64,000 nucleotides of DNA from Clostridia bacterium (GTDB lineage: Bacteria > Bacillota > Clostridia > JAAYHZ01). Shown here one piece after another: positions 19,516-44,667 of this stretch (the first letter of the stretch is position 1; each line of letters begins with the position of its first letter). The position numbers were made by a program, and so were the translations under genes. The DNA lies in contig JBMNIH010000007.1 in assembly GCA_050950825.1 (NCBI GenBank), forward strand, positions 187,971 through 251,970, in the 5' to 3' direction. The notes beneath the pieces are model-generated. The model searched no databases and was not told where the DNA came from. It saw nothing but the letters and a program-made list of their open reading frames with translations.

Positions 19516-19528
19516 AAAATTGTTTCAT

Positions 19529-19969
19529 TACACACGAGTTTGTTTACAATTACAAAGTTTGCTTATCGCAAGCGCCAACCGTCAGGGGGGAGAATTCCCT
19601 TTGGCGGTTTTTTGTTGTGTAAAAAAGCATATAAGAATGTATAAATTATTAAATCCGGACGCAGTTTTAATCCCTCGTAAGCCTGTATAATTCGTATGTG
19701 TAGGTGGTTTCGATATTTCCTCCCGTAGGTTATACCCTGCGTATGAATACTCATTACCTTCCACGAGCAAACTTTGTCATTCTTCACTGCTCACGAGCAA
19801 ACTCGCTTGTCATTTTCTCATTTTTTATATCTTTTTTTATATTTTTTAAGGTAATAAAACCCGAGAGCAAACTTTGTCACTACAAGGGAAGAAACAGCGA
19901 GAAGCCTTGCAACAACTACATTTCAACACGAGCAAACTTTGTCACTCCGTGAGCAAACTTATTTGTAAC
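19529..19969. repeat. Cluster of about 18-bp repeats (core AGCAAACTTTGT) at the island border
   Basis: Direct copies lie at 19762-19779, 19792-19812 (variant), 19861-19880, 19927-19945 and 19948-19969 (variant). An inverted copy lies at 19551-19568 and a deleted variant at 19533-19548. Confidence 0.8.
19572..19614 (+). terminator. rpsI terminator
   Basis: 'cgccaa...aggg...ccct...ttggcg' hairpin followed by T7. Confidence 0.7.
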
Positions 19970-20052
19970 TACACATAGTAATAAATAAAAAATGAAATAA
20001 AAATAAGGGTAAATCTCAGAAAAAAATTTCAAATAACCAAACGCCAATATTA

Positions 20053-21444
20053 GATAGTGTCTTGTCAAGTGGTGTAAAATGATTTCTACTTTATCTTCCC
20101 TTCGTTTCATTTATGTAAGATAGCAATCGGAGCTAATGAAAACCCATTAGCCTGTGTAAGCTTTTCCATAGATTCTAAACTGAAGTATCGCCGCCCTACC
20201 TGCCATTCATCGTTCTGCTCCATAAGCATAGTACCTACAAGGCGAATAACGGCATCACGATTAGGAAATATGCATACAACATCAGTCCGACGGCGTATCT
20301 CACGATTAAGCCGTTCCAATGGATTCGTAGAATGAATCTGTATCCAATGCTCACGGGGAAAGGCCATATACGCCAATATATCCTCTTCGGCTGCTTCAAG
20401 GATTTCCATTGCTTTCGGAAAACGCCCCCTCAGTTCATCTACCACATGTCTTAGCTGTTCCCTTGCGGATTCCTGATCATTTTGTGCAAAAATGGTGCGT
20501 ATGATTGAGGAGACCATTCCTTGGCACTTCTTCGGCACTTGGCTTAATACGTTCCGCATAAAATGTACTCGGCATCTTTGCCATGTGCTCCCGGTTAAAA
20601 CCTTCTTTATGGCGGATTTTAACCCCTCATGGGCATCACTTACAACTAACTTCACCCCTTTAAGTCCCCTTGCTACAAGCTTTCTCAGAAACTCTTCCCA
20701 AAAAGCTCCGTCTTCACTCATGCCGACATCAAAACCTAGTATCTCTCGTTCACCGGACTGATTTACACCTACGGCTATTACAAGTGCCATACTGCATACT
20801 CTTCCACCTTCACGAACCTTAGGAAAAGTAGCATCAAGCCAAAGATAAGGGTATTCTCCTTCGAGTATGCGGTTCTTGAACTCGGTGACAAAGCCATCCA
20901 ATTGCTTGCTGATCCCGGAAACTTCGCTTTTATCCATCCCTTTAATTCCGAGAGATTCTACCAACTCATCTACTTTTCTAGTGCTGACACCGTGCACATA
21001 AGCTTCCTGCACCACATTTAATAAAGCTTTTTCTGACATCTTCCGAGGCTCTAATAAACTTGGGAAATAGCTTCCATGCCTCAATTTGGGTATGCTTAAC
21101 TGTAACGTACCAAGGCGAGTATCCCATTCTCTTTGTCGGTATCCATTACGATGATTGTTCCGATTCTCACTTCGTTCATACTTTTCCGCACCGATCATCG
21201 ACGTAACTTCCGCATCCATCAGAGCATTGATTAACAGCGTAAGCGCTTCCTTTAAAAAATCCTTATCTTTTTCAACAACATACTTGCTAAGTTGCTCTAA
21301 AAGTGACATTCTATTTTTAGTAGCCACGGTATGACCTCCTTTACTTTATCTTTTTTGTTTGAATCTAATAAAGTAAAAATCATATCGTGGTTACTCTTGT
21401 CAAGCATACTCCACGAAATTTACACCACTACTTAAGACTATAAC
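20053..21444 (-). mobile_element. IS256-family insertion sequence, copy A (1392 bp)
   Basis: Imperfect terminal IRs: 'GATAGTGTCTTGTCAAGTGGTGTAAAAT' at one end and, reverse-complemented, 'GTTATAGTCTTAAGTAGTGGTGTAAATT' at the other. The same sequence recurs at 46692-48083. Confidence 0.9.
20107..21327 (-). CDS. IS256-family (mutator-type) transposase
   Basis: 406 aa. 'NGYRQREWDTRLGTLQLSIPKLR', 'YLWLDATF' and 'WQRCRVHFMRN' are IS256 transposase hallmarks. Confidence 0.95.
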   Translation of the reverse strand: MATKNRMSLLEQLSKYVVEKDKDFLKEALTLLINALMDAEVTSMIGAEKYERSENRNNHRNGYRQREWDTRLGTLQLSIPKLRHGSYFPSLLEPRKMSEKALLNVVQEAYVHGVSTRKVDELVESLGIKGMDKSEVSGISKQLDGFVTEFKNRILEGEYPYLWLDATFPKVREGGRVCSMALVIAVGVNQSGEREILGFDVGMSEDGAFWEEFLRKLVARGLKGVKLVVSDAHEGLKSAIKKVLTGSTWQRCRVHFMRNVLSQVPKKCQGMVSSIIRTIFAQNDQESAREQLRHVVDELRGRFPKAMEILEAAEEDILAYMAFPREHWIQIHSTNPLERLNREIRRRTDVVCIFPNRDAVIRLVGTMLMEQNDEWQVGRRYFSLESMEKLTQANGFSLAPIAILHK

Positions 21445-21558
21445 TGTAAGCCTGTTAGATAGTGGTTAATAACAGTTAAGAACCATTGTTAGTAGTTATT
21501 ACTGGGTATAAACTGTTAAGGGCTATTAGTGATAATTATTAACTTTCAATATTGGCGG
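21445..21558. repeat. GTTA-rich degenerate repeat tract abutting IS256 copy A
   Basis: Three loosely similar units of about 33-38 bp (TTAGATAGTGGTTAATAAC / TTAGTAGTTATTAC / TTAGTGATAATTATTAAC). 'aatattggcg' at its end is the inverse of 'cgccaatatt' at 20042-20051. Confidence 0.4.
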
Positions 21559-21776
21559 ATATACTGAGATATACTGCCTGCTTAAGCGTAGAGGGAGTTG
21601 ATTTTCCTAATTATTTTATTCGTGCCGAAAAAAATCGCTATAGAGGATGACTATGCTATAAATAAAATAATTAAAAGGAACAAAATCAAAAGAAATAGAA
21701 AGAAATTGATATAAAATCCCAGTAGGCTAATATAGGGCTAAATCAGTATAAATCGGCTAAAATAGACTTTTTTAAA

Positions 21777-21818
21777 ATAACCATTTTGTTTATCAACGTA
21801 CAAAACGGTTATTTTTTT
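21777..21818 (+). terminator. Terminator-like hairpin in the long AT-rich region upstream of brxA
   Basis: 13-bp arms 'ataaccattttgt'/'acaaaacggttat' with one mismatch, followed by T7. Confidence 0.5.
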
Positions 21819-22033
21819 GACTCAATTTTCGATGTGCTCCTAAAATATAATGGAAGATTACATCAATGAAAAATCCTATCAAAAATAAATAAAATAGATT
21901 TAATGAGGAAAAAGGAAGAAAAAAATTGAATAAAGGAGATAAAAAATCTAATCACCTAATAATCGCAGTATATCAAGTTTCTATAAGGGGAGGATTTTAT
22001 ATTAAAGAATTAACTCACAATTAATTCTGGTTT

Positions 22034-22066
22034 TTCAATGCATTTATGATTAAATAGTGGTATAAT
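22034..22066 (+). promoter_or_regulatory. Candidate promoter of the BREX operon
   Basis: -10 'tataat' at 22061-22066 preceded by 'tgg' (an extended -10 TGn arrangement). There is only a weak -35-like 'ttcaat'. Confidence 0.4.
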
Positions 22067-22113
22067 GTTTATATAAAAGAATGGCCACGAGAAAGAGGCG
22101 ATGATGGTAAAAC

Positions 22114-22710
22114 ATGTTAGAATATAAGTCAACAATTAAGGCTAGATCTTATCTTTATTTAGAGTTGAAAAAGGCATCAAACCTATACTTACAAGGATTT
22201 TCTATAGATGACATAAGACAAAAAGCATTAGATGAAAATATATTTTCATTAAATTCAGAGAGCAGAATTAAGGAAATTGCTTCAACCGTCTCGGAAAGAC
22301 TAGAAGCCTTGGATGAAATGTTACTTGATAAATTAGTAAATGGAAACCTTGAAACAAGCAAACAGGTAGCCCTATATGCTATTTTGAAAACAGACAGGCT
22401 TTTTTTTGAGTTCATGCAGGAGGTATATAGAGATAAATACCTTATAAGAGATTATTTAATTACAGATAAGGATTTTGCTATTTTCTACCAAAGAAAAGCA
22501 GAACAAAGTCAAAAAGTGGCAGAGTGGAAAGATTATACCTTTTATAAATTAAAGCAGGTTTACAAAAGAATCTTAACTGAAGCCGGATTTGTAAAGAAGA
22601 ATAAAAAAGATGTTGAAATAACCAGACCCTTAATGGAGCAAGAATTAATAGAACATTTAAATGCAAAAGGTGATGGCATATACCTGCAGGCTATGTTAGG
22701 AGGGATATAA
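22114..22710 (+). CDS. brxA: BREX protein BrxA (DUF1819-like)
   Basis: 198 aa and first gene of the cassette. The 'DENIFSLNSESRIKEI...' and 'LFFEFMQEVYRDKY' pattern is typical of BrxA. Confidence 0.8.
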   Translation: MLEYKSTIKARSYLYLELKKASNLYLQGFSIDDIRQKALDENIFSLNSESRIKEIASTVSERLEALDEMLLDKLVNGNLETSKQVALYAILKTDRLFFEFMQEVYRDKYLIRDYLITDKDFAIFYQRKAEQSQKVAEWKDYTFYKLKQVYKRILTEAGFVKKNKKDVEITRPLMEQELIEHLNAKGDGIYLQAMLGGI

Positions 22711-23292
22711 ATGAAGACCATTTATGAAAGGCTTGATGAGATTCTACCTATTATTACAGATAAAAGATTTAGGGAGAACAAAGGATTAGGCAATGAAATA
22801 GGCTACTACATTTTTGATTATGATCCTGAACATGAAATCATTGTTAGAGAACATATAAAGTTCTTAAAGCAGAAAATAAATAATGATGGCATGGATTTTT
22901 CTATTAGAGAAATTGACCTTTATGAAATAATGATTGAAATATTAGCGGAAAAGGGATATTTGAAGAAAGTCTTTGAAATGGAGAAGAAAAAAGGTACAGA
23001 TGCAATCCTTAAGCCTATAAAGAATACTTTAAGACTCACCCAGAAAAATGATTTAGTTGTAGAGTATATCAGGGAAAGAGTACAGGAAAATGATATTGTT
23101 TTCTTAACAGGTGTGGGGAAAATATGGCCAATTATCCGATCTCACACTATTTTAAATGTTCTACATTCTGTAATAGATCATATACCTTTAATCATGTTTT
23201 ATCCTGGGACTTATTCAGGACAAGACTTAAATCTTTTTGATGAAATTTCTGACCAAAACTATTATAGGGCTTTTAAACTGGTAGAAAGATAG
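22711..23292 (+). CDS. brxB: BREX protein BrxB (DUF1788-like)
   Basis: 193 aa, starting immediately after the brxA stop. 'YYIFDYDPEHE', 'GVGKIWPIIRSHTILN' and 'FYPGTYSGQDLNLF...NYYRAF' are present. Confidence 0.9.
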   Translation: MKTIYERLDEILPIITDKRFRENKGLGNEIGYYIFDYDPEHEIIVREHIKFLKQKINNDGMDFSIREIDLYEIMIEILAEKGYLKKVFEMEKKKGTDAILKPIKNTLRLTQKNDLVVEYIRERVQENDIVFLTGVGKIWPIIRSHTILNVLHSVIDHIPLIMFYPGTYSGQDLNLFDEISDQNYYRAFKLVER

Positions 23293-23308
23293 GGGAGGGA
23301 ATTGGACT

Positions 23309-26300
23309 ATGAAATTAAAGAAAATGTTTTATAAGGAAATTGATAGGGATATTAAGGGCGTTATTAAGATTGGACAAGATGATGATACCAATGTTCACCA
23401 AGAGTTGGAGGAATATGTAGTTACTCGAGAATTGGCTAGACATTTTAGCACTTTTTTTGAGGCCTACAGAGAAGCGATTAATAATTATACTGACAAAATG
23501 GGAGTCTGGATATCAGGATTCTTTGGTTCTGGTAAATCCCATTTCTTAAAGATTTTATCTTATCTTCTTGAGAATAAAGAGGTAAAGGGTAAACGTGCTA
23601 TATCCTATTTTGACGATAAAATAGAGGATGCTTCCGTTTTAGCAGATATGAAAGCCTCAGGGGATGTAAGTGCCGATGTTATTTTATTTAACATAGATTC
23701 AAAAGCCGATTCAGATTCTAGAACTAATAAGGAATCAATAGTTAATGTATTCAATAAAGTGTTCAATGAAATGCAAGGTTTCTGCGGATCTTTGCCATGG
23801 CTTGCAGATCTTGAAGCACAAATGGTTAAAGAAGGTTCTTATGAAGCCTTTAAGTCAAGATTTGAGGAATTATCAGGGGAATCATGGATTGAAGCAAGAG
23901 AAGATTTTTATTTTGAAGAAGATAATATAGTTCAGGCACTGGCAGATACAACTAAAATGAGTATAGAAGCAGCCCGAAATTGGTACAACAAGGCTGAAGA
24001 TAACTACTCTTTAAGTGTTGAAAAGTTCGCTAACAAAGTAAAAGAATATATTGAGTCCAAGGACAGAGAGCACCATGTCATCTTTTTGGTGGATGAGATG
24101 GGTCAATACATAGGGGATGATGTAGGTTTAATGCTTAACCTGCAGACAGTTGTTGAAGATTTAGGAACTTATTGTGGGGGTAAAGCGTGGGTTATTGTAA
24201 CCTCACAGCAAGATATAGATACTGTTACGAAGGTAAGGGGTAATGACTTTTCTAAAATCCAAGGTAGATTTAATACAAGGCTTAGTTTATCCAGTGCCAA
24301 CGTGGATGAAGTAATTAAAAGGAGAATCCTTTATAAAAACGAAACCGCTAAAGAGACTTTAAAACTCTACTATGCAGACAAGGAAGCAATTATAAAAAAC
24401 CTTATTACCTTTTCTGCTGATACACCGGAAATGAAAATCTTCAAAACAGCAGAAGACTTTATAGATGTGTATCCCTTTATACCTTATCAATTTAGATTGC
24501 TGCAGTCTGTTTTTACAGCAATTAGACAGCATGGTGCTAGTGGAAAACATCTTTCAGAAGGAGAGAGGTCTCTTTTATCTGCATTTCAAGAGGCTGCTAT
24601 CAAATATATGGATAAAGAAGTGGGAGCATTAGTACCATTTTCCGCATTCTACGAAACTATAGAGACTTTCTTGGATCATAATATCAAGACAGTTTTTATT
24701 CATGCAGAAGATAACGATAGGCTCAGTAGTATGGATGTAGAAGTACTGAAGGTCCTATTTTTAATAAAATGGGTAAAAGAAATGCCAAAGAACTTGGAAA
24801 ACATTGCAACATTAATGGTTTCACATATTGACGAAGACAAAATTGAATTAAAGAAAAAAATAGAAGCCTCTTTAGACAGGCTTGTAAAAGAGACACTGGT
24901 TCAGAAAAATGGAAATGAATATATCTTCTTAACTCATGAAGAACAGGACGTAAATAAAGAAATACAGAATATTTCAATTGATATCAGTGAAATAATACTG
25001 AAGATTGGTGAGGAAATATACACAGGAATTTACAGTGAAAAGAAGTTTCGCTATAACGTTAGATACCATTTTGATTTTAACAAAATCATAGACGATAGGT
25101 ATATGTCCTCCCAAAAACACGATATAGGAGTAAAAATAATTACCCCTTATTATGATACTGGTGTTGAACTTACTGACCATGAATTAAGAATGATGTCAGC
25201 CAGAGAGAATAATCTAATAATCAAACTACCTCAAGATACTTCTTTCCTTGAAGAGATGGAGAATATATTAAAGATACAGACCTACCTTACAAGGAAAGCA
25301 GGGACTATACAAACGGAAGAAATTGAGGAAATAAAGATACGAAAATCAAGAGAAGTTGCTGAGAGAAAGGACAGAGTTGTATCCTTACTTAAGGAAGCAT
25401 TGCAAGAAGCAGACTTCTATGTAAATATGCAAAAAATTGATATAAAATCAAAAAATCCTGTTGAAAGAATAAACAGTGGGTTGAAAATACTTATTGAAAA
25501 TATCTATGACAAGTTAAACTATATTACTGATTTTATTGAAAGCACCAAAGAACTTCATGACCTGCTGTTTGATGAAAATACTCAGATAAATATATTTGGG
25601 GAAGAAGAAATCCCAAACAAACTAGCCATAGATGAGATGCTCCACTATATCGAAAGAAACACCCAACGGCATATTCCTGTAACTATGAAAACTCTATTGG
25701 AACTATATGATAAACCGCCTTATGGCTGGCTGCCAGATGATATCAGGGGGCTAGTGATTAGATTATTTAGAGCACAGGAAATTAAGATACAATTAGGTAG
25801 CGAATATATTAATCCTTCGGATAAAAACCTAATCCAATATATGACGAAAAAAGATTATATAGATAGATTGCTAATAAAGAAAAGAACTAAAACCCCTGAA
25901 AAGTATTTGAATAATGCCAGGATGTTGATTAGAGAAGTTTTCAATTATGCATCAGTGCCAGGGGATGAAGATGGATTAATGATTCGTTTCAAGGAGTTAT
26001 CTAACTATGAATTATCAAATATAAGAGAACTATTAGTCCGTTATGAAGAGAGAAACTATCCCGGCAAAGATGTGTTAGAAAGAGGCAAGAGTCTTTTCGA
26101 GGACATTTTGCAGATTAGTGATGCTACAGCCTTCTTTGAAAAACTATATGAAGTAAAAGAAGAATTAATGGACTATGAGGAAGAAGTTTTTGACGTTAAA
26201 AAATTCTTTAAAAACCAAAAAGAGCAGTTTGATAAAGCCCTTAAACAACTCAATATATATGAAAAGAACAAAACCTATGTTTTAGATCCGGAGACTATAA

Positions 26301-26863
26301 ATATCGTTAAGGAAATAGAAACAATAGTTAAATCACCAAAACCATATAATCAGATTTCAAAACTGCCTAGCCTAATAAATGACTTTGTTGACAAATTTGT
26401 TATGTTGTTAGAAGAAGAGTGCAAACCTGTAAGGGCTGTGATAGAAAGTGATTGGAACAAGGTTAAGGATGAACTTGAATTATATGATTTTAAGGATGAA
26501 TTGGCAGGTGCGTTTAACAATAAGTTTAGGGATCTTTTGGTCAGATTAGATTCATCCCACAATTTCTATGAAGCCATCGCCATGAAGGAAGAGTCAGATA
26601 GGCTGAAAATGAGATGTTTTGAGGAAATTAAAAAAACTGCCTTGGAAAAGAGAAAAAAAAGGGACAGTGAAAAACAACCAGTTACCACTAGGGAAGGCAA
26701 TGGAGTTTATGTTACCAAAAAAACAGTCAATATAAGCATAGCAAATATATTCCATGGAGCAAAAACCATTGAAAGTGAAGAAGATATAGAAGAATTACTT
26801 GATTATTTAAGAAAGCAATTAAAAACGGAACTAAAGGAGAATACCATATTGAAATTAATTTAA
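23309..26863 (+). CDS. brxC: BREX ATPase BrxC/PglY
   Basis: 1184 aa. Walker A 'GFFGSGKSHF' and Walker B-like 'IFLVDEMGQY'. Size and position match BrxC. Confidence 0.9.
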   Translation: MKLKKMFYKEIDRDIKGVIKIGQDDDTNVHQELEEYVVTRELARHFSTFFEAYREAINNYTDKMGVWISGFFGSGKSHFLKILSYLLENKEVKGKRAISYFDDKIEDASVLADMKASGDVSADVILFNIDSKADSDSRTNKESIVNVFNKVFNEMQGFCGSLPWLADLEAQMVKEGSYEAFKSRFEELSGESWIEAREDFYFEEDNIVQALADTTKMSIEAARNWYNKAEDNYSLSVEKFANKVKEYIESKDREHHVIFLVDEMGQYIGDDVGLMLNLQTVVEDLGTYCGGKAWVIVTSQQDIDTVTKVRGNDFSKIQGRFNTRLSLSSANVDEVIKRRILYKNETAKETLKLYYADKEAIIKNLITFSADTPEMKIFKTAEDFIDVYPFIPYQFRLLQSVFTAIRQHGASGKHLSEGERSLLSAFQEAAIKYMDKEVGALVPFSAFYETIETFLDHNIKTVFIHAEDNDRLSSMDVEVLKVLFLIKWVKEMPKNLENIATLMVSHIDEDKIELKKKIEASLDRLVKETLVQKNGNEYIFLTHEEQDVNKEIQNISIDISEIILKIGEEIYTGIYSEKKFRYNVRYHFDFNKIIDDRYMSSQKHDIGVKIITPYYDTGVELTDHELRMMSARENNLIIKLPQDTSFLEEMENILKIQTYLTRKAGTIQTEEIEEIKIRKSREVAERKDRVVSLLKEALQEADFYVNMQKIDIKSKNPVERINSGLKILIENIYDKLNYITDFIESTKELHDLLFDENTQINIFGEEEIPNKLAIDEMLHYIERNTQRHIPVTMKTLLELYDKPPYGWLPDDIRGLVIRLFRAQEIKIQLGSEYINPSDKNLIQYMTKKDYIDRLLIKKRTKTPEKYLNNARMLIREVFNYASVPGDEDGLMIRFKELSNYELSNIRELLVRYEERNYPGKDVLERGKSLFEDILQISDATAFFEKLYEVKEELMDYEEEVFDVKKFFKNQKEQFDKALKQLNIYEKNKTYVLDPETINIVKEIETIVKSPKPYNQISKLPSLINDFVDKFVMLLEEECKPVRAVIESDWNKVKDELELYDFKDELAGAFNNKFRDLLVRLDSSHNFYEAIAMKEESDRLKMRCFEEIKKTALEKRKKRDSEKQPVTTREGNGVYVTKKTVNISIANIFHGAKTIESEEDIEELLDYLRKQLKTELKENTILKLI

Positions 26864-26880
26864 GTTGAGGAGGGGATATA

Positions 26881-29800
26881 GTGGATAAAACAGCCATTAG
26901 AAACTTTGCGGTAAAAGCAAGGCGTAAACTAATAGAAGATATAACCCATAAGGCCTATGAGATAGGGATAACAAAAGATAAAATCTTAGATATTGAAACC
27001 TTTGAGGGTGGTTTTAGAGTAAAGGGTAGAGAAAACGGCAAAACCTTTAAGAAATATGAATTAAAGCAGCGTAATAAGTTGATTCAAAATATTAAACATA
27101 AAGGCTTTGAGCAAGTTATAGAAGAGGTTGCCTATACATGGTTTAACCGTTTTATTGCTCTGCGTTTTATGGAAGTTAACAACTATCTTCCTACTGGGGT
27201 TAGGGTATTATCCTCAATAGAAGAAGGTAAGACTGAGCCTGATATTATCCAAGAGGCTCTAAACATAGACTTAGATCTTGATCCTGAAATAGTGTATAGA
27301 CTTCAAGACAGTAACGATACAGAGGATTTATATAGATATTTGTTAGTTAAGCAATGCAATCAATTAGGAAAAATTATGCCTAATGTTTTTGAGGAAATCG
27401 CTGATTATACAGAATTACTCCTTCCTGACAAACTTCTTGCTGAAGGTTCTGTAATTAGAGATTTAGTGGAAGAAATAGAGGAATATGATTGGAAAATAGA
27501 ACTGAATGAGGAAGAACAGAAGCGGGAACCAGAAAAGGGAGAACACGGTATAGAAATTATTGGTTGGCTATATCAGTATTATATTTCTGAAAAGAAAGAC
27601 GAAGTTTTTGCTGGCCTTAAAAAGAATAAGAAGATTACCAAGGAAAATATTCCTGCTGCCACCCAACTCTTTACACCTAAATGGATAGTAAAGTATATGG
27701 TAGAGAATTCATTAGGCAGGCTATGGCTGGAATCTCATCCAAATGATCAATTAAAGGCTCAATGGAAATATTATTTGAAAGAAGCCGAACAAGAACCGGA
27801 AGTTCAAAAACAATTAGATGCACTCAAAGACCCCAACTTAAATCCAGAAGATATTAAGGTATTGGATCCTGCCATGGGTAGTGGCCATATTTTAGTTTAT
27901 GCTTTTGATGTTCTATATGAAATATACCTATCTACAGGTTATTCAGAAAGGGAAATACCCACTCTTATATTGGAAAAAAACCTTTATGGTCTTGATATAG
28001 ACGATCGTGCAGGCCAATTAGCCACTTTTGCCATTTTAATGAAGGCAAGAAGTAAAAATAGAAGGATTTTTAGACACAAATCAAGGATGAACTTGTGCTC
28101 CATTCAGGAAAGTAACCATATTCCTAAAGAGGCTATCGAATATTTGGTTAATCCAAAAGAGACTGAACTAGAAAAACATATTCACAGGGAGGACGTTGAA
28201 TACCTAATAGAAGTTTTTCATGATGCAAAAGAATATGGCTCAATTTTAGATGTGAAAAAAATAGATTTTGACGCTTTAGAAAAAAGGATTGAAGAGATAA
28301 GGAATAATGTTCCAGAAGACCTATTTGAACTGCAATATAGAGAGATAATATTAGAAAAAATTCCACCATTGATTCAACAGGCAAAGATAATGAGTCAAAA
28401 ATATGATGTTGTGTGTACAAATCCGCCGTATATGGGGAATAGGGGGATGAATTCTAAACTATCAAAATACATAGGTCAACATTTTCCAAACACAAAAACT
28501 GATTTTTTCGCAGTATTTATAGAAGTATGTGGTGCTTATACACGAGCCAGGGGATTGTTTTCATTGATTACACAGCCTACATGGTTGTTTTTAAGTGCTT
28601 TTGAAAAATTAAGAAAAAGTATAATTGAAAACAAGTCTATTTGTAGTCTTCTACACATAGGGAGAGGTATTTTTGGAATAGATTGGGGATCAGTTGCCTT
28701 TACATTAAGAAACATACTGGTAAATAATTATTATGGTCAATATTTTAGGCTACATACGAGGCTATTCCAGTATATAGATCCAAATGATATAAAAGACTTG
28801 TTTTTAAAAGCCAAGAATGACCATAGTTTTAAATTCAATTTTGATAACTATGGAAACAATTCTGAATTATTTAATGATGGCAAATTAAGAATGATAGGTG
28901 ACTGCAATGGTCAAAAAATACACTACATTTATAATCAAGAAAACTTTAAGTTAATTCCAGGATACCCTATTGCGTATTGGGCAAATTCTAACCTACTTGA
29001 TGCATTTAGATCTAAAAAAATTATATCTAAAATTGCCATACCAAGAACAGGTATTATGACTGGAGATAATGCTAGATTTTTACGATTATGGTGGGAGCCT
29101 TACTATGGTAAATTAAACTTGGATGCAAAAGACTATGAAAGTGCGATAAAATCAAAATTAAAATGGTATCCATATAACAAGGGGGGAGATTTTAGGAGAT
29201 GGTATGGAAATAATGAATATGTAGTTAATTGGGAAAATGGAGGATATGAAATATTTGGGTGTGCAAAATTAGATAGCCGAAACTCACAGGACTATCCAAA
29301 CGAACTTAAATTTAAAAGGGCAATTTCATGGGCACTAGTATCATCTAAGAAACCATCTTTTAGAATAATCAATAACAGTTTATCAGATATTGGTGGGCCT
29401 TCCTTGTTTGTAAGTAGTAATAATTTATATTATATTTTGGCATTTTGTAATTCATTAATAGCCATAGAAATATTAAATATATTAAATCCAACAGTAAACT
29501 TTCAAGCAGGGAATATAGGAAATTTACCAATAATTTTAAATAAGGACAATTTTCATGTTGTTACTTCAAATGCTATGCAGAATATAAGAATTTCACAACA
29601 AGACTGGGATTCTTTTGAAACCTCATGGGATTTCAAAGTACACCCATTAGCAAACTTTAATAAGTACATGGATAATTATTATGATACCTTATTAGAATCA
29701 GGTATATTGGCTGATAAGGAGCCTATATATGTAGCCAATTTGGAACATGCCTATGAACAATATAAAGAATTTACTGAGGTTCAATTCAACCAACTTAAAT

Positions 29801-30150
29801 CCAACGAAGAAGAACTAAACCGTATTTTCATTGAAATCTATGGTCTCCAGGACGAACTAACTCCTGATGTAGATGACAAAGACGTAACTATTACAAGGAT
29901 ATATGATTCTAAAGAAGATATCCCAGAGTGTATGAAGGGAAATAAATATGTACTTACAAGGGAAGATGTAATAAAATCCTTTATCTCTTATGCTGTTGGC
30001 TGTATGTTTGGACGCTACTCTTTAGATGAAGAAGGTCTAATCTATGCTGGTGGAGATTTTGATGACAAGTTTAGGTTGCGTGATGGACAATGGGAGATTA
30101 AGACTAAAGAAGGTTGGAAAAAGTCGATCGATAAACATAGTAGAACATAA
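26881..30150 (+). CDS. pglX: BREX adenine methyltransferase PglX, N-terminal 1089-codon segment (gene interrupted by a frameshift)
   Basis: SAM motif '[12 protein letters not shown]' and catalytic 'TNPPY' (28419-28430). The frame terminates at 30148-30150 while homology continues in the +1 frame. Confidence 0.9.
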
Positions 30151-30622
30151 TGTTATTCCTATTGCTGATGGAGATTATTTTGAAGATGGTATACTGGAGC
30201 GTTTTGTAGACTTTGTAAAGGTATCTTTTGGTGAAGAAACATTGGAGGAGAATCTAGATTACATTGCTGAAACTTTAGGTAGGAAGGCCAATGAAACTTC
30301 AAGACAGGCTATTAGAAGATACTTCTTAAAAGATTTCTATAAAGACCATGTAAGAACATATAAAAGTCGTCCTATTTACTGGCTCTTTGATAGTGGAAGA
30401 CAGGACGGGTTTAAAGCCCTTATTTACATGCACCGTTACGAGCCTTCTACTGTTGCAAGGGTGAGGACCGATTATTTGCATAGTTTGCAGAAAAAGTATG
30501 AAGCAGAAATAAACCATCTTGATATTTTAATAGATTCGGATATCTCTCAAAGGGAAAAGGCTGCTGCAAGGAAAAAGAAAGAGACAATTTTAAAGCAGAT
30601 TGAGGAATGCAGGATTATATGA
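30044..30622 (+). pseudogene. pglX: pglX middle segment (frame +1 relative to the N-terminal segment)
   Basis: '[25 protein letters not shown]...[24 protein letters not shown]' is the conserved PglX C-terminal region. It is not an independent gene. Confidence 0.85.
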
Positions 30623-30770
30623 TGAGGCTATAGCCCATGTGGCCAATCAAAGAATTGAGATTGATTTAGATGATGGCGTAAAAGTTAATTATGCTAAATT
30701 CCAAGGGGTTGAGATTCCTCAAGGTAAAGGCAGAAAGCCACTAAAAGCAGATTTATTAGCAAAGATATAA
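30618..30770 (+). pseudogene. pglX: pglX C-terminal segment (a second +1 shift)
   Basis: It translates to '[50 protein letters not shown]', the canonical PglX tail, in the third frame. Confidence 0.85.
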
Positions 30771-30783
30771 AGTAGGTGAACAT

Positions 30784-33339
30784 ATGAATTTTTTAGAAGT
30801 TAAAAAGAGGTTAGAGGAAATCTTTAATAAAGAACCTATGGATGGGAAAAAGAGACATATAGTTTTTTGGTATGATGATGAGGGAGAATTCATTGAAGAC
30901 ATTAACGAACTTAAACTAGATAATGCCAAGATTCTCAAACTTGCTGATAATAATTCTTTCTATATAAAGTATCTTCTTGAAAAAGAAGATATTGAATCTA
31001 ATTATCTTTTATATTCTCCTTCATCTAAACCAATACCACGGGATAATTGGGTGTTGGATATTCTGAAATATAGTGAGGAGTTTTCAACTGACAAGGCAAC
31101 TTTAATTATGAGGGACTTCAAGGTGGAAGATCCCTCATTAAGAAATGTGTTTAAGGGATATTTAAAGTTCTTTGGAAATAAAGAGAGATATAAAAAATTT
31201 GCCTCATACAATATAGATAAATTTACTAAAGAAAAGGTAGATATAGCAGTTCTATCTGCTCTACGCAGATTACCCGTAGCAGATTTTGAACAAGTTGTAA
31301 AAAAGATTCTGATTGAAGAATTAGAAGGAGAGAACAAATATCTAGAGGCTATTGAGAACGTTGGTAATATAGATGCCTTTTGGGATTTAGTTGAGAAAAG
31401 ATATGGTTATAATTTCGAGGAGAGATCATTAGAAAAATTAACGATTATGCTTCTTGTTACTCATTTATCCTATACTCTCGAAGAGGATATGCCAACTACA
31501 TGGGTAGAGTATGTATCTCCTAAAAGATCAGATTCTGTAGTGTTTATAAGTAATTTTATGAATCATGCTACCGACGGTAAATACTATGATTTATTGGCGG
31601 ATAAAGTCCAAGAGACATTAAATGTAAGAGTGTATTTAAATAAATGGGATATAGATAAGTATATTGAATGTGATACATTTAGGGCTTTTGATGAAGCAAT
31701 AATGGAAAGGATAATTGGCAACTTAGTAGAAGGTGTCGGAGAATTTGAAAGATACCGTAAACTGATTAATAGAAGAAGGACAAGTCATTGGTTTAAAACC
31801 TATAGAAACGAATATGAAGCCCTATATTTTGCTAATGAACTCCTTGAAATGGAAAAGAGAATGGGTGGAGTTATTAGAGGTGGATCTGCCTATGATTTGA
31901 TCAATGCTTATGTTAAAGAATATTATCTGTTTGATTATTTCTATCGGAAGTTTTATTACTATTACGATAAAATTACTGACAAAGATCCATTTGAAAAACT
32001 AGCAGAGAGAATTGAAAACACCTATACTCACTGGTATCTAAACGAACTTTCAATAAAATGGTCTGCAGCGGTTCAGGAGGAATTACTAGAAGACTACTCT
32101 TTGGCAGGTATTAGGCAGCAAAAAGATTTTTATAAAGACTTTGTTTTGCCATTTATAAGGAATAATGAAAGATTATTTGTAATTATTTCTGATGCTTTAA
32201 GATATGAAGCAGCAAGAGAACTCCTTAATCTAATTAATAAAGAGGTGAGGGGTATGGCAGAGATTGGCTTTATGCAAGGAGTCATCCCTTCAAATACAAA
32301 ATATGGTATGGCAAGTTTGCTTCCAAGAAAGGAATTGGTAGTCAATGATAAATCAGATATTATTATTGACGGTATAAGCACCCAGGGGACAGTAAATAGG
32401 GGGAAAATAATCGCCAATTATAGTGATAATGCTCAGGCAATATCATTTAGTGACATGGTAGATATGCGTAGGGCAGATTACAAGAAAGCCTTTGAAGGGA
32501 AAAAACTAATTTATATATACCATGACACAATAGATGCCGTTGGGGAAGTGCCTCAGACGGAAAGAGAGGTTTTTGATGCCGTAGAAAAGGGTTTTGAAGA
32601 TTTAGTATCGCTAATCAAAAACCTAATAAACCATGTAAGTGCTACAAACATAATAATTACTGCAGATCATGGTTTCATATACAGACGTTCTCAATTAACA
32701 GAAGTAGACAAGATTAGCAGATTTAATGCTGAAACCATAGATGCCGGCAGGAGATATATGCTTGCAGAAATTGATGAAGATATTCCAGATACATTACCTA
32801 TTTCTATGAAATATCTTTTGGGACAGGAGACAAAATTAAAAGCCATTGTTCCAAAAGGCATGATTAGATACAAGGTTCAAGGGGCAGGAGCAAATTATGT
32901 CCATGGAGGAGCATCTTTGCAGGAGATAATTGTTCCTGTAATAAGATTTAAGAATATCCGTAAAGATGAGTATAAAGCCACTAAGGTCGAAGTGAAGTTA
33001 ACCAATATTTCAAGGAAGATTACAAATAGAATCACCTATTTGGAGTTTTTCCAAACAGAAGTGGTAGACGAAAAGAAAGTGCCATTAAAACTAAAACTTT
33101 ATTTTGTAGATAAAGAAGGTAACCGTATCTCTAATGAAAACATTATAATTGCTGATAGTAGGTCGAAAAATCCTGAGGATCGAACCTTTAGGGAGAAGTT
33201 TACATTAAGAGATATGGCTTATGACAAGAACAAGGAATATTATTTAATTTTAGAAGATGAAGATGAAACCGTAGAAAAAATATATGAGCGAATACCTTTT
33301 AAGATAGATTTGCTATTTACAGATGACTTTGGTTTATAG
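30784..33339 (+). CDS. pglZ: BREX alkaline-phosphatase-family protein PglZ
   Basis: 851 aa. N-terminal 'IVFWYDDEGEF' and the PglZ-domain region 'FVIISDALRYEAA...ITADHGF' are present. Confidence 0.9.
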   Translation: MNFLEVKKRLEEIFNKEPMDGKKRHIVFWYDDEGEFIEDINELKLDNAKILKLADNNSFYIKYLLEKEDIESNYLLYSPSSKPIPRDNWVLDILKYSEEFSTDKATLIMRDFKVEDPSLRNVFKGYLKFFGNKERYKKFASYNIDKFTKEKVDIAVLSALRRLPVADFEQVVKKILIEELEGENKYLEAIENVGNIDAFWDLVEKRYGYNFEERSLEKLTIMLLVTHLSYTLEEDMPTTWVEYVSPKRSDSVVFISNFMNHATDGKYYDLLADKVQETLNVRVYLNKWDIDKYIECDTFRAFDEAIMERIIGNLVEGVGEFERYRKLINRRRTSHWFKTYRNEYEALYFANELLEMEKRMGGVIRGGSAYDLINAYVKEYYLFDYFYRKFYYYYDKITDKDPFEKLAERIENTYTHWYLNELSIKWSAAVQEELLEDYSLAGIRQQKDFYKDFVLPFIRNNERLFVIISDALRYEAARELLNLINKEVRGMAEIGFMQGVIPSNTKYGMASLLPRKELVVNDKSDIIIDGISTQGTVNRGKIIANYSDNAQAISFSDMVDMRRADYKKAFEGKKLIYIYHDTIDAVGEVPQTEREVFDAVEKGFEDLVSLIKNLINHVSATNIIITADHGFIYRRSQLTEVDKISRFNAETIDAGRRYMLAEIDEDIPDTLPISMKYLLGQETKLKAIVPKGMIRYKVQGAGANYVHGGASLQEIIVPVIRFKNIRKDEYKATKVEVKLTNISRKITNRITYLEFFQTEVVDEKKVPLKLKLYFVDKEGNRISNENIIIADSRSKNPEDRTFREKFTLRDMAYDKNKEYYLILEDEDETVEKIYERIPFKIDLLFTDDFGL

Positions 33340-33363
33340 AATTACAAAGGTGGTGAAAAGGCA

Positions 33364-35406
33364 GTGGACAGGGAGAATAGAGATTTAAATGAAAAATTGA
33401 ACAAATATTTTCCAGGCAGAGTTGTCCGTAAGGATTTGACTCAAAAAATAAAGGAAGGGGCCAATGTACCAGTATATGTCCTTGAATATTTACTTGGTAT
33501 GTACTGTGCTACTGATGATGAAGATTCCATAAATGAAGGAGTAAATAGAGTAAAAGCAATACTTGCAGAAAATTATGTAAGGCCCGATGAAGCGGAAAAG
33601 ATTAAATCTAAAATTCGAGAATTAGGCCAGTATACAGTTATTGATAAACTGACAGTAAGGCTAAATGAAAAAAGAGACATTTATGAGGCGGAGTTTTCTA
33701 ATTTAGGGTTAAAAGGTGTAGAAGTAGAAGCAGATTATGTTAAAAAATTTGAGAAACTTCTTGCTGGAGGTATATGGTGTATTCTTAAAATACAATACTA
33801 TTATGATGAAGAGTTAAGAAATGCTAACCCTTTTATCATAAATAGTTTGAAGCCCATCCAAATTCCAAACTTGGATATGGATGAGATATTGAATGGAAGA
33901 AAACATTTCACCAAAGATGAATGGATTGATATCCTTTTAAGATCCGTGGGCATGGAACCTACACAATTGGAGGAAAAAGTTAAGTGGCACCTTCTTGCTC
34001 GCATGATTCCTCTTGTTGAGAATAATTATAATCTTTGTGAGTTAGGGCCAAGAGGGACAGGTAAATCACATATATATAAGGAAATATCACCTAACTCTAT
34101 TCTAATATCCGGTGGGCAAACTACTGTAGCCAATTTATTTTACAATATGAATACCAGAAAAATCGGATTAGTTGGCTTATGGGATGTAGTAGCATTTGAT
34201 GAAGTGGCTGGAATTACCTTTAAAGATAAAGACGGCATTCAGATTATGAAGGATTATATGGCTTCAGGCTCATTTGCCAGAGGAAAAGAATTAAAAAATG
34301 CTTCTGCTTCTATGGTTTTTGTTGGTAATATCAATCAATCAGTGGACGTTCTTTTAAAAACATCCCATTTATTTGAACCATTCCCAGAAGCAATGGCTTA
34401 TGACACGGCTTTTTTTGACAGGATGCACTGTTATATTCCCGGCTGGGAGATACCTAAATACAGACCGGATTTTTTCACTCACGAATATGGCTTTATTACT
34501 GATTATATTGCAGAATTTTTCAGGGAAATGAGAAAAACATCCTATGGCGACAGCATAGATAAATACTTTAGACTTGGAAATAACCTTAATCAAAGAGATG
34601 TTATAGCGGTAAGAAAGACTGTATCGGGATTGGTCAAACTAATTTATCCTCATGGAGAATTTAACAAAGAAGATATAGAAGAAATCCTAAGGTATGCCTT
34701 AGTTGGAAGAAGACGAGTAAAAGAACAATTAAAGAAAATTGGTGGTATGGAATTTTATGATGTTCATTTTTCTTACATAGATAATGAAACATTTGAGGAA
34801 GAATTTGTATCGGTTCCAGAACAGGGTGGCGACAAACTGATACCTGAAGGAATGGGAAAACCAGGACATATATACACAGTTGCCCATGGTGATTCAGGGA
34901 TGATTGGAGTATATAAAATAGAAACCGAGGTTGTCTCTGGAACAGGAAAATTTGAAAGAACAGGATTGGGGACTAGCAGGGAAGCAAAAGAGAATTTGAA
35001 TACAGCCTTCAACTATTTTAAAGCAAACAAAAAGAATATCAGTGGAACAATTTCCTTAAACAATAATGATTTTTTAATGCATGTTCAAGATTTACAGGGA
35101 ATTGGTATGACTTCTCAATTGACATTAGCAGCCTTTATTGCCCTTTGTTCTGGAGCATTAAAAAAACCTGTATTAAGTCAATTGGTGGTATTAGGGTCAA
35201 TGAGCATAGGGGGAACCATTAATAAGGTGGAGGAACTGGCATCCACACTTCAAGTTTGTTTTGATGCAGGAGCGAAAAAAGTACTCCTACCTATGGCTTC
35301 TGCCGCAGACATTAACACAGTTCCGCCAGAATTATTCTCTAAATTTCAGATATCCTTTTATCAAAGCCCTGAAGATGCGGTATTTAAAGCATTAGGAGTT
35401 GAGTAA
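33364..35406 (+). CDS. brxL: BREX Lon-like protease BrxL
   Basis: 680 aa, GTG start after RBS 'ggtggtga'. 'FPGRVVRKDL', the AAA motif 'GPRGTGKSH' and a Lon-protease-like C-terminus are present. Confidence 0.9.
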   Translation: MDRENRDLNEKLNKYFPGRVVRKDLTQKIKEGANVPVYVLEYLLGMYCATDDEDSINEGVNRVKAILAENYVRPDEAEKIKSKIRELGQYTVIDKLTVRLNEKRDIYEAEFSNLGLKGVEVEADYVKKFEKLLAGGIWCILKIQYYYDEELRNANPFIINSLKPIQIPNLDMDEILNGRKHFTKDEWIDILLRSVGMEPTQLEEKVKWHLLARMIPLVENNYNLCELGPRGTGKSHIYKEISPNSILISGGQTTVANLFYNMNTRKIGLVGLWDVVAFDEVAGITFKDKDGIQIMKDYMASGSFARGKELKNASASMVFVGNINQSVDVLLKTSHLFEPFPEAMAYDTAFFDRMHCYIPGWEIPKYRPDFFTHEYGFITDYIAEFFREMRKTSYGDSIDKYFRLGNNLNQRDVIAVRKTVSGLVKLIYPHGEFNKEDIEEILRYALVGRRRVKEQLKKIGGMEFYDVHFSYIDNETFEEEFVSVPEQGGDKLIPEGMGKPGHIYTVAHGDSGMIGVYKIETEVVSGTGKFERTGLGTSREAKENLNTAFNYFKANKKNISGTISLNNNDFLMHVQDLQGIGMTSQLTLAAFIALCSGALKKPVLSQLVVLGSMSIGGTINKVEELASTLQVCFDAGAKKVLLPMASAADINTVPPELFSKFQISFYQSPEDAVFKALGVE

Positions 35407-35451: not shown

Positions 35452-35486
35452 CAAAGGCAAAATTTGCCCTTGGCTTTTTATTTTTT
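35452..35486 (+). terminator. Terminator of the BREX operon
   Basis: 'caaaggcaaa...tttgcccttgg' hairpin followed by T-runs. Confidence 0.7.
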
Positions 35487-35707: not shown

Positions 35708-36205
35708 TTGGAGCAGTTTCTATGTCCCTGCTGCAGGAGTAACCGTATGAAGGTTGTAGGGAGCAGGCCCAGGAAGTACCTGCAGGAGGATGCCTCGCAA
35801 GTGATATTGATAATACGCAGGCTGCGCTGCCTGGAATGTAACAAGATACATCACGAATTGCCCGATATACTGGTTCCATACAAACGGTACAAAAGCGAAT
35901 GCATAGAGACAGTTGTAGCAGAAGATAACAACACTCCGCTAGCAATAGCATGTGATGAATCTACGCTATACCGGTGGAAAAAGTGGTTTAACTCTTTAAG
36001 CAGGTATTTTGCAGGTTGCTTGCAGTCCATAGCAATACAGCTGGGAAGAGAAACTGAAGAAGCTTCAGGACCAATATCCGTCCTCCATAGGATATGGTTT
36101 TATGTTGGTGAAGCACCAGGATGGCTGGCGCGAATTGTCCATACGCTTGTAAATTGGAATTTATGGGTACAGACCCGTTCTGCATTCCTGTCCGGATATG
36201 CATAG
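35708..36205 (+). CDS. Zinc-ribbon protein, DUF6431-like transposon accessory protein
   Basis: 'CPCC...' and 'CLECNKIHH' cysteine pairs. This protein type is commonly found upstream of Mu-like transposase/ExeA-like ATPase pairs in Firmicutes (from memory). Confidence 0.55.
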   Translation: MEQFLCPCCRSNRMKVVGSRPRKYLQEDASQVILIIRRLRCLECNKIHHELPDILVPYKRYKSECIETVVAEDNNTPLAIACDESTLYRWKKWFNSLSRYFAGCLQSIAIQLGRETEEASGPISVLHRIWFYVGEAPGWLARIVHTLVNWNLWVQTRSAFLSGYA

Positions 36206-36244
36206 TATACACTCATGTTGAATCAATCAAAGGGGGTATTCAAC

Positions 36245-37600
36245 ATGAGAGATCAGAGAAAAGCAGAGACAATAGCACAGCAGCGGATGGAACTGATATC
36301 GCCACTGCTGGCCGAGGGCCTGGATCCTGCAAAAGCGAAAGAGATCAAAGCCCGTATATGTGAACAAACCGGTATATCAGAGCGTACTCTCCGAAGATAT
36401 GTGGCACAATACCGGGAAGCCGGATTCGACGGTTTAAAGCCTAAAGGAAAGAGCCAAAGAAAAACAGAGGATGCCATACCATCCCATGTATTGGAGCAGG
36501 CTATTCTTCTGCGCAGGCAGGTTCCAAGCCGTAGCGTATCACAGTTGATAAACATCCTGGAGTGGGAAGGAATTGTAGAGCCGGGCCGGATAAAGCGCAG
36601 CACACTGCAGGAGCAATTGGCAAACCGGGGGTACAGTGCAAGACAGATGAAAATGTACACATCAACGGGAGTAGCAGCGCGCAGGTTCCAACATCGGTAT
36701 CGCAATAAGCTCTGGCATTCGGACATCAAGTATGGCCCTTATCTTCCTATCGGCAGGGATGGAGAAAAAAAGCAGGTGTTTTTGGTTCTCTTCGTGGATG
36801 ATGCTACCAGATACGTTCTTCATGGAGAATTTTATCCCACCCTGGATAAAGTCATCGTAGAGGATTGCTTCCGGAAGTCCATTCTTAAGCATGGTGTGCC
36901 CGAAGCCGTATTTTTTGATAACGGCAGCCAATACAGGAACAAGTGGATGACACGGGCATGTGCAAAAATGGGCATTCGTCTGCTCTATGCCCGCCCCTAC
37001 TCGCCGGAAGCAACCGGCAAAGTTGAGAGGCTGAACCGGGTAGTGGATTCCTTTCTTACAGAGGCCGCTTTGGAGAAACCACAGACCCTGGAAAGGTTGA
37101 ACGAGCTGTTCCAGGTATGGCTTACCGAATGCTATCAGAACAGGCCCCATTCCGCCCTGGTGAATCACATGAGTCCGGAGGTTGCATACCGAAGTGATAC
37201 GAAACCCCAAAGGTTTATTGACCCGGACGTCCTGGCTCAGGCGTTTTTGCATTTTGAGGAACGCAAGGTGGATAAAGCAGGCTGTATCAGCTTCAACGGC
37301 CAAAAGTATGAGGTTGGCCTTCCCTTTATTGGCTGCACTGTAGATGTGATCTATGATCCGGCATGCACGGATGAGCTTACCATTGAGTATGAAGGCCATA
37401 ACCCATGGAAGGCTAAAAAGCTGGTGATTGGTGAACGGGCCGGTAGGCGGCCTGGTTTACCGGAACATCTTACCACCGAAAAAGCGGAGGCATCCCGCTT
37501 GCTAAGAGCAGCCAAAAAGAAGAACGAGCAGCGCATAGAACAGTACATGCCTGCCGTCTCTTACAGAAACGTGGCCAAGGGTGGTGAGCAGAATGTTTGA
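36245..37600 (+). CDS. DDE (rve/Mu-type) transposase
   Basis: N-terminal HTH region followed by the integrase core 'LWHSDIKY...FVDDATRY...FFDNGSQY...PEATGKVERLN'. RBS 'aaaggggg' precedes the ATG at 36245 (the ORF is open from 36215). Confidence 0.85.
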   Translation: MRDQRKAETIAQQRMELISPLLAEGLDPAKAKEIKARICEQTGISERTLRRYVAQYREAGFDGLKPKGKSQRKTEDAIPSHVLEQAILLRRQVPSRSVSQLINILEWEGIVEPGRIKRSTLQEQLANRGYSARQMKMYTSTGVAARRFQHRYRNKLWHSDIKYGPYLPIGRDGEKKQVFLVLFVDDATRYVLHGEFYPTLDKVIVEDCFRKSILKHGVPEAVFFDNGSQYRNKWMTRACAKMGIRLLYARPYSPEATGKVERLNRVVDSFLTEAALEKPQTLERLNELFQVWLTECYQNRPHSALVNHMSPEVAYRSDTKPQRFIDPDVLAQAFLHFEERKVDKAGCISFNGQKYEVGLPFIGCTVDVIYDPACTDELTIEYEGHNPWKAKKLVIGERAGRRPGLPEHLTTEKAEASRLLRAAKKKNEQRIEQYMPAVSYRNVAKGGEQNV

Positions 37601-38393: not shown

Positions 38394-38716
38394 TACAATT
38401 CCACTGTTCTTATCAATGGGATGATGGTAGTAAAGACATATGGTATGGTACTGTTAACCAGGTTATTAATTTCGGCAGCCACTATGAGGTTTTTATTTTA
38501 AGCCGGAGCAGCTTGCGGGTACTGGTTGGTCAATCAACCTCAGGGTTGTTTGCCTGTCTTCCTGATTTTAGCGCTGGATGCCATCTGAGTGCACTGAATG
38601 ATACTTTCTACAACAGTGAGAAGTTGATTTATGCTTTAGGAAATGTTGTAGACGGTATGACAATAGCTTATGCTTTCAAAGCATTGGAACCATTTTTAAA
38701 CTTCAATAACGACTAA
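38390..38716 (+). CDS. Hypothetical 108-aa protein, last gene of the transposon
   Basis: The GTG start overlaps the ATPase stop (gtGA), suggesting translational coupling. I recognise no family. Confidence 0.45.
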   Translation: MIQFHCSYQWDDGSKDIWYGTVNQVINFGSHYEVFILSRSSLRVLVGQSTSGLFACLPDFSAGCHLSALNDTFYNSEKLIYALGNVVDGMTIAYAFKALEPFLNFNND

Positions 38717-41269: not shown

Positions 41270-41303
41270 TTAAAGGGGTGCTTTGGCCCCTTAAAATTGG
41301 ACA

Positions 41304-42553: not shown

Positions 42554-42604
42554 ATTGTATTACATTTTTATACAATCTGTCCAACCGTCTAAGGGGTCCT
42601 TAAC

Positions 42605-44510: not shown

Positions 44511-44667
44511 TTTTGATCAGATTCCAATAACGATACTTTGTACCTACATTATACATAATATAGTAAAAAATCTTATAAATTATGAACTTTAAATTGGAAT
44601 AGTGTATAATATTGTTAAAGAATTAATGGAACGTTATGGGATTATATGAATTTTAAGGGGTGAAAAT

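Follow-up and report, generated by a model that had tools for sequence, protein, structure and literature searches.

Does a locus that holds every gene of a phage-defense operon also record a working one? The question is raised by a cassette of six genes at positions 22114-35406 of a 64,000-nucleotide (nt) stretch of contig JBMNIH010000007.1 from a Clostridia bacterium (hereafter the window; position 1 is its first letter). A first-pass annotation described this cassette as a complete type 1 bacteriophage exclusion (BREX) system. We show here that all six genes are present, but that the reading frame of pglX breaks into three. With two +1 frameshifts in this gene, the description 'complete' fails for the recorded sequence, something at which the earlier annotation hinted by speaking of 'pglX repair' without stating it. 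The failure is probably technical rather than biological.

Gene content of the cassette and the reading frames of pglX

Proteins encoded in the window were searched against Pfam, the PADLOC profiles and PDB. Six type 1 BREX genes lie on the plus strand in the order brxA-brxB-brxC-pglX-pglZ-brxL, co-directional and tightly spaced, and the coordinates of the open reading frames (ORFs) confirm the canonical arrangement first described. The intergenic gaps are 0, 16, 17, 13 and 24 nt, which agrees with the 0-24 bp of the first-pass annotation, but only when pglX is followed through the two frameshifts to its stop at 30770. Pfam and PADLOC matches were obtained for all six products with E-values from 1e-46 down to 0, the best PADLOC hits being full length for each, and all six proteins have relatives among the solved BREX structures (Table 1). 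The set comprises BrxA (DUF1819) and BrxB (DUF1788), the BrxC/PglY P-loop ATPase of about 1200 residues with three BrxC-specific Pfam domains, a PglZ protein of the alkaline-phosphatase family, and, as the last gene and the one specific to type 1, BrxL, a Lon-like AAA+ protein. PglX belongs to the gamma-class N6-adenine methyltransferases, has the S-adenosylmethionine (SAM)-binding motif LDPAMGSGH and the motif TNPPY in its translation, and matches the Pfam families Eco57I, N6_Mtase and MmeI_Mtase. The identities proposed for the six products are thus matched strongly by profile search; likewise, the lengths first given for the five uninterrupted products (198, 193, 1184, 851 and 680 residues) are those of the ORFs, and the motifs quoted for BrxC (Walker A), PglX (SAM and TNPPY) and BrxL (AAA) are all found in the translations. 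The BrxB protein is listed in identical form in 194 blocks of a public collection.

The GC content is 30-36 % over 21-35 kb as against 41-49 % in the flanking backbone, bearing out the AT-richness noted at first reading, and the cassette is AT-rich, horizontally acquired cargo in a Bacillota-type chromosome. No WYL/BrxR gene was found in the cassette or its leader, there being no ORF of more than 41 codons between the upstream insertion sequence (IS) and brxA, and no nuclease gene was found within the cassette by ORF, Pfam or PADLOC analysis; both absences had been noted at the outset. A hairpin followed by a T-run directly after brxL is a candidate terminator, and similarity to one close relative (contig L001) stops shortly beyond it, at 35485; the promoter and terminator scan overall gave no enrichment over shuffled sequences. 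Neither Rfam nor tRNA scans of the window gave a hit, and a DNA search of a plasmid database returned as its sole match the brxL of Bacillus mycoides (71.8 % identity). Judged by composition, order and orientation, the locus is almost certainly a type 1 BREX operon. It is of a kind already known and is in itself ordinary, one more type 1 BREX in a defense island. It is also the largest coherent system of that island, a rank that had been claimed for it across the window and that we uphold for the island.

How such an operon would act can be drawn from characterized type 1 systems. PglX, complexed with BrxB, BrxC and PglZ, would N6-methylate one adenine, strand-specifically, in a 6-bp non-palindromic motif of the host. 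Phage DNA in which the motif is unmethylated would be recognized via the specificity region of PglX, and phage replication would be blocked with neither cleavage of the DNA nor abortive infection, in a process requiring the BrxC ATPase, PglZ and the AAA+/Lon-like ring of BrxL. The motif would be set by PglX residues ~520-970, which are swapped among otherwise near-identical cassettes (see below). Both methylation and defense depend on pglX in the systems of E. coli, Acinetobacter and Salmonella (PMC6326788, PMC9122589, PMC11341690), and the gene determines the motif that is recognized (PMC11341690, PMC6326788, PMC9122589).

It is this gene whose frame is not intact in the window. The pglX coding sequence is recorded as three pieces, at 26881-30150 (1089 residues, frame 1), 30044-30622 (frame 2) and 30621-30770 (frame 0), the last ending at the TAA at 30768-30770, and these match PADLOC PglX positions 1-968, 975-1134 and 1137-1166 in succession. 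The frame changes at two extra bases that occur only in the window, a G at 30126 and an A at 30617. For comparison we used ten metagenome contigs of the Joint Genome Institute (JGI), L001-L010, which were retrieved by exact look-up of the window PglZ and which we term A-type. All ten encode the identical PglZ and share 99.6-99.9 % identity with the window across as much as 17.8 kb, and in none of the ten is either extra base present. The three that span the whole of pglX and have no lesion of their own (L001, L002 and L005) each encode PglX as a single 1295-residue ORF. Removing both bases from the window yields an ORF of this same length, differing from that of the relatives at five residues. 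Read literally, PglX in the window ends after about residue 1082 and its final C-terminal region is lost; in Salmonella PglX the C-terminal region contains residues needed for binding Ocr and DNA (PMC11341690).

Origin of the extra bases

A second set of cassettes, L098-L107, was obtained by looking up the identical BrxB protein and is termed B-type. Alleles A and B have equal lengths at each of the two pglX sites, where a short multi-nucleotide change distinguishes them, and the window, one base longer, is the union of both. At the first site, A reads GTCATCTAT, B reads GTCGAGGGT and the window reads GTCGATCGAT; at the second, the three read GGATTTATG, GGTTATATG and GGATTATATG, respectively. 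Over the 3' kilobase of pglX as a whole, the window agrees with A at 74 of the 80 columns at which the alleles differ and with B at the other 6, and has no private substitutions.

The same pattern, in more pronounced form, extends into the leader of the operon. Between 21790 and 22113 the window is a fine-scale mosaic of two upstream alleles, U1 (in L002 and L103) and U2 (in L098 and L104), with eight inserted bases of its own. It switches between U1 and U2 some 16 times within the 330 nt upstream of brxA, and in all six cases in which one allele has a base and the other a gap, the window takes the base. One leader insertion converts the brxA ribosome-binding site from GAGG to GATGG. All ten bases inserted only in the window have an allele difference no more than 1-2 nt away, and at each insertion site the window forms a common superstring of the two alleles, which do not differ in length. 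The indels at allele-difference sites comprise these ten insertions and no window-only deletion, and none falls in a homopolymer. For the region upstream of brxA, a permutation test of the co-location of insertions and allele differences gave P = 0.008; for pglX it gave 0.04-0.13, according to the B-type contig chosen.

Such a superstring pattern is the expected output of pile-up consensus or polishing that merges two haplotypes or gene copies. Because neither independent mutation nor ordinary long-patch recombination would give it, we incline, by no wide measure of confidence, to the explanation that the indels are a mixed-allele consensus artefact, produced when the assembly merged two co-existing alleles of the cassette. 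Were this so, the real cassette would probably be intact and functional.

Several observations weigh against an artefact. The window BrxA and BrxC and the truncated PglX (with either a V or an M start) are absent from exact look-ups, and no independent assembly confirms or refutes the insertions, since the window alleles are on record nowhere else. The window also differs from allele A by 20 coding substitutions, between 22212 and 30598, and these are polarized: the window has G or C at 18 of them, the remaining two are A/T transversions, and none runs in the opposite direction, AT to GC. The overall differences between A and B are roughly balanced (107 vs 87). Two A-type relatives have real-looking pglX lesions of their own, and in nature no other BREX gene is disrupted as often as pglX (PMC9122589, PMC6326788, PMC11341690). 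The common allele resembles a clone that arose recently and drifted toward AT, and from the polarized substitutions the window allele would probably be, at least in part, a genuine distinct allele. Only the indels look artefactual, and the substitutions look like true allele divergence.

At each of the 20 substituted sites the window base also occurs in at least one B-type cassette. Random mixing of reads as the source of the coding substitutions was rejected, given how strongly the differences are polarized. We likewise rejected the window as the ancestor of both upstream alleles, a reading that would have suited the known GC-to-AT and deletion biases but that needs equal-length deletions in both alleles at the same eight microsites. 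Exact-string scans of the metagenome_contigs collection returned zero matches even for the common allele, and are hence uninformative.

The strongest alternative to a consensus artefact is that the frameshifts are real, in which case pglX of this strain would be inactivated, with truncation after ~1082 residues, the other five genes would be intact, and neither methylation of the BREX motif nor phage exclusion would be expected. We give this a substantial chance, if somewhat short of even. Near-identical relatives provide direct precedents, as L003 has seven G residues (7614-7620) in place of the run of six in the window and its pglX is thereby broken, and L004 has a TAC to TAA change in pglX at window position 30262, the other genes being intact in both. 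Broken pglX or pglZ genes are found in several B-type contigs too, some of them from a sample with linked metagenome-assembled genomes (MAGs) named 'LR'; we take this to mean long-read data, and those B-type lesions deserve caution. The lesions in relatives fit the published view that pglX is often disrupted or phase-variable (PMC9122589, PMC6326788, PMC11341690). In the window itself, the damage to the brxA ribosome-binding site is of a piece with an inactivated operon, IS elements have left the island heavily decayed, and the lost part of PglX corresponds to the region holding the Salmonella residues that bind Ocr and DNA (PMC11341690). Independent mutations, however, would not be expected to fall, as both pglX insertions and the eight leader insertions do, on allele-difference microsites as unions of two alleles. 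All ten indels are moreover insertions, against the usual deletion bias of bacteria, neither of those in pglX lies in a homopolymer, and exact look-ups place the truncated PglX product in no other assembly.

It is very improbable that the interruptions are programmed, whether as ribosomal or transcriptional frameshifting of pglX or as contingency loci for on/off phase variation. Homopolymer phase variation of pglX is known in Streptomyces and has been proposed for BREX generally (PMC6326788, PMC9122589), and the cassette does contain one tract of six G residues (G6), which lies inside the specificity module, is lengthened to G7 in L003 and could be a slippage hotspot. This tract is, however, in frame in the window, the two insertions, within GTCGATCGAT and GGATTATATG, lie outside repeats and slippery runs, and restoring the frame would need two separate +1 events. 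Least credible of all is the reading of the cluster as another methyltransferase system with unrelated neighbors, either type IIG/IIL restriction-modification or defense island system associated with restriction-modification (DISARM), which the complete complement of BREX-specific partners in effect refutes. In its favor, the pglX pieces also match Pfam Eco57I and MmeI_Mtase and, in PADLOC, REase_MTase_IIG at 1072 bits and DrmMI at 818 bits. Their top match, at 1203 bits, is nevertheless PglX, each of the five partner genes is full length and specific to BREX, and neither the DISARM genes drmA, drmB and drmC nor a nuclease domain was found by Pfam or PADLOC.

For users of the record, the frameshifts in pglX should not be taken as biology without a check of the reads. 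A defense-system finder would otherwise call the cassette pseudogenized or incomplete.

Table 1. Coordinates and supporting matches of the BREX cassette and of the flanking features of the window; nucleotide identities are to the B-type cassettes (aa, amino acids).
Feature	Position	Strand	Description
Tn7-like transposon end	19521-20052	+	Starts TGT, 5 nt after the rpsI stop codon (19515); cut by the IS256-like copy at 20053
IS256-family copy 1	20053-21444	-	406-aa Mutator-type transposase; directly upstream of the BREX leader
Leader/promoter region of the BREX operon	21445-22113	+	Non-coding; extended -10-like TGGTATAAT
Leader, brxA, brxB, brxC and 5' part of pglX	21445-28450		94-98 % nucleotide identity
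brxA	22114-22710	+	198 aa; Pfam BrxA 3.9e-60; PADLOC BrxA 5.7e-78; PDB 3bhw 1.8e-8
brxB	22711-23292	+	193 aa; Pfam BrxB 2.1e-46; PADLOC 9.5e-76; PDB 9zll_E 5e-49
brxC/pglY, P-loop ATPase	23309-26863	+	1184 aa; Walker A GFFGSGKSHF; PADLOC BrxC 1529 bits, full length; PDB 9zdx_C 1e-209
pglX, N6-adenine methyltransferase and specificity subunit	26881-30770	+	1295 aa after removal of two extra bases; PADLOC 1203 bits; PDB 8c45 and 9ewz, 1e-220 or better
Exchangeable pglX specificity module	28450-29770	+	aa ~520-970, just after NPPY at aa 514, from comparison with B-type; no detectable nucleotide identity
G6 tract in the NKGG codons of pglX	29181-29186	+	Sole run of at least six G or C in the 13-kb, 33 % GC cassette
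3' part of pglX, pglZ and start of brxL	29770-33500		87-93 % nucleotide identity
First window-only extra base, G	30126	+	Frame 1 to frame 2; at a microsite of multi-nucleotide allele difference
Second window-only extra base, A	30617	+	Frame 2 to frame 0; at a microsite of multi-nucleotide allele difference
pglZ	30784-33339	+	851 aa; Pfam PglZ 1.6e-55; PADLOC 1102 bits, 1-850 of 855; PDB 9nv3_C 6e-110; identical protein on 12 other contigs
brxL	33364-35406	+	680 aa; BrxL_N, BrxL_ATPase 1.7e-148 (AAA+, GPRGTGKSH), Lon_C; PADLOC 1188 bits; PDB 8emc 1048 bits
Hairpin then T-run, candidate terminator	35452-35472	.	Directly after brxL
IS256-family copy 2	46692-48083	-	99.9 % identical to copy 1, same orientation; right edge of the DNA absent from relatives with a relic site

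The PglX specificity module and the Tn7-like end at rpsI

The window and B-type cassettes are close relatives along most of their length, and the specificity module of pglX is the part in which they have no detectable nucleotide identity (Table 1). At the protein level, the window PglX is mostly 86-100 % identical to the B-type proteins as far as residue 500 (with one local dip, in L103), 16-48 % identical over residues 550-950, with transitional windows on either side, and mostly more than 88 % identical from there to the end (with one dip, in L101). PglX lengths among the cassettes range from 1219 to 1295 residues. Among the species representatives in the genome_contigs collection, PglX identity does not exceed 73 %, except in one 1.6-kb fragment labelled Lachnospiraceae (98 %). 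The structure of Salmonella PglX assigns residues 662-849 to the target-recognition domain and 850-960 to spacer helices (PMC11341690), and by analogy the swapped block would cover both. From this we infer that the cassette family may change its recognition motif by exchanging the module. Near-identical cassettes with swapped modules, together with relatives that have independent pglX knock-outs, offer a natural series for mapping how the BREX target motif changes.

The cassette lies in an island that adjoins the ribosomal-protein gene rpsI and opens with a Tn7-like transposon end. This end opens with TGTTTCATTACACACGAG, contains five direct 18-nt copies or variants of CACGAGCAAACTTTGTCA, and has TGTTTCATTACACACGAGTTTG as its end sequence next to rpsI. 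About 460 nt of it are nearly identical in L098, L099 and L100, contigs of other taxa, the rpsI DNA of which is only 73-88 % identical; L100 carries the label of a Desulfitobacteriia MAG. Contigs of the same species, among them L013, have a version of the end whose repeat-array part is ~81 % identical. The end is located at L100:2505-3000, L098:6600-6920 and L013:3400-3917. In relatives the TGT end and its repeat array stand next to transposition genes, as tnsA and tnsB follow the end in L100, L013 and L109. A BREX cassette with the identical BrxB lies a few kb behind the end in L098-L100, and in L100 it comes directly after tnsA and tnsB.

A full set of tnsA, tnsB, tnsC and a target selector with a second (left) end was not found. 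Genes of the tns set are lacking from the window, where neither a left end nor the end motif in inverted orientation was found; among the relatives, IS21 interrupts tnsB and neither tnsC nor tniQ was seen. Same-species contigs share the backbone with the window up to 19970 and again from 48081, with ~250 bp in between that include the start of a Phd-family antitoxin gene. Two of them, L012 and L016, were considered as empty sites and rejected, both keeping a relic of the Tn7-like end. Since they retain this relic, 19971 is not the true left boundary of the island. On the sequence evidence, our reading of the island, which runs from 19521 to at least 48083, is that of a Tn7-like element in decay that carries BREX as cargo and has lost its transposition genes to the IS256-like copy at 20053-21444. 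The 'island' of the first-pass annotation thus stands as a context, refined here to a decayed Tn7-like remnant at rpsI with IS elements and a type I cyclic oligonucleotide-based antiphage signaling system (CBASS).

These observations allow a tentative history, which we put forward as possible but short of probable. A Tn7-like family targeting the position 5 nt past the rpsI stop codon would have shuttled one BREX cassette between classes of Bacillota, with brxA, brxB, brxC, pglZ and brxL staying near-constant, a 1.3-kb PglX module being exchanged, and pglX being switched off via the G6 tract in some lineages. Searches of the literature returned no description of rpsI as an attachment site for Tn7-like elements, and PMC8649781 does not mention it. 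The rpsI-adjacent end may represent an additional safe-site attachment locus for defense-carrying transposons.

The two IS256 copies are each 1392 bp, differ by 1 nt, are in direct orientation and bracket 25 kb that include BREX. Neither copy is flanked by 8-bp target duplications, nor is the pair as a whole, and this suggests that deletion or recombination mediated by the IS, not a simple insertion, gave rise to the arrangement. A composite IS256 transposon was accordingly not adopted, the copies being direct repeats that have no such duplications. Copy 2 truncates a Phd/YefM-type antitoxin gene (48081-48695 region), of which the last ~230 nt remain, and the 129-residue ParE-like toxin gene downstream (48306-48695) is intact; an orphan toxin would need explaining.

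The remaining content of the island is varied. A two-gene type I CBASS-like module at 44668-46578 encodes a SMODS cyclase (334 residues) and an S_4TM membrane effector (301 residues), in place of which L001 has, after BREX, a DncV-like cyclase and an E1/E2 (Cap2-like) gene. Four genes at 35708-38716 encode DUF6431, a 461-residue rve integrase with a helix-turn-helix, a 270-residue AAA_22/TniB-like ATPase and DUF6618. This module also follows brxL in L002 and L006-L008, is absent from L001 and appears inverted near tnsB in L109, and is probably a separate transposon. A tyrosine-recombinase gene (38837-39450 and 41071-41276), 92-93 % identical to an intact 287-residue gene of L001, is split by a 1.6-kb IS4-like insertion with its transposase at 39528-40928 on the minus strand, and an IS3 orfB fragment occupies 41304-42065. 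Two IS1182/IS5-like copies (42602-44511 and 53185-55090) are 99.6 % identical; the one in the island has 1-nt and 3-nt insertions and a split transposase, and the one outside has an intact transposase of 539 residues. In four B-type contigs (L103, L104, L106 and L107) the BREX leader, homologous from window position 21445, is preceded by a gene for a 305-residue actin-like ALP_N/MreB-like partition protein, and because of this gene some copies of the cassette may sit on plasmids.

Comparison with known BREX systems

The type 1 BREX of Bacillus cereus H3081.97, reportedly described by Goldfarb et al. in 2015 and summarized in PMC9122589 and PMC6326788, is said to be the founding system. The window cassette resembles it in having the same six genes in the same order, a Bacillota host and no BrxR, and differs from it in that PglX is longer here (1295 residues), has a different specificity module and is frame-broken in the record.

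BREX as cargo of Tn7-like elements is already known, with 40 BrxC-bearing elements described by Benler et al. 2021 (PMC8649781), and the window BREX is comparable in lying behind a Tn7-like end. As to differences, PMC8649781 does not mention an insertion 5 nt after the rpsI stop codon, and none of the Tn7-like elements seen here has a full tnsABC plus tniQ/tnsD set.

With the system of Acinetobacter sp. NEB394 (BrxL structures 8emc and 8emh; PMC9122589), the cassette shares the same six core genes, and its BrxL aligns over the full length (1048 bits). The Acinetobacter operon, however, starts with the WYL regulator BrxR, and here there is none. In the Salmonella D23580 and E. coli HS systems (8c45, 9ewz; PMC11341690, PMC6326788), the Salmonella island embeds extra defense genes, whereas the window cassette has none inside. 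The best alignment to these PglX proteins is confined to residues 4-642 and the specificity half is divergent, but the N-terminal methyltransferase half matches at 1e-220 or better. The domain logic is the same throughout, running from methyltransferase through target-recognition domain and helical spacer to the C-terminal region.

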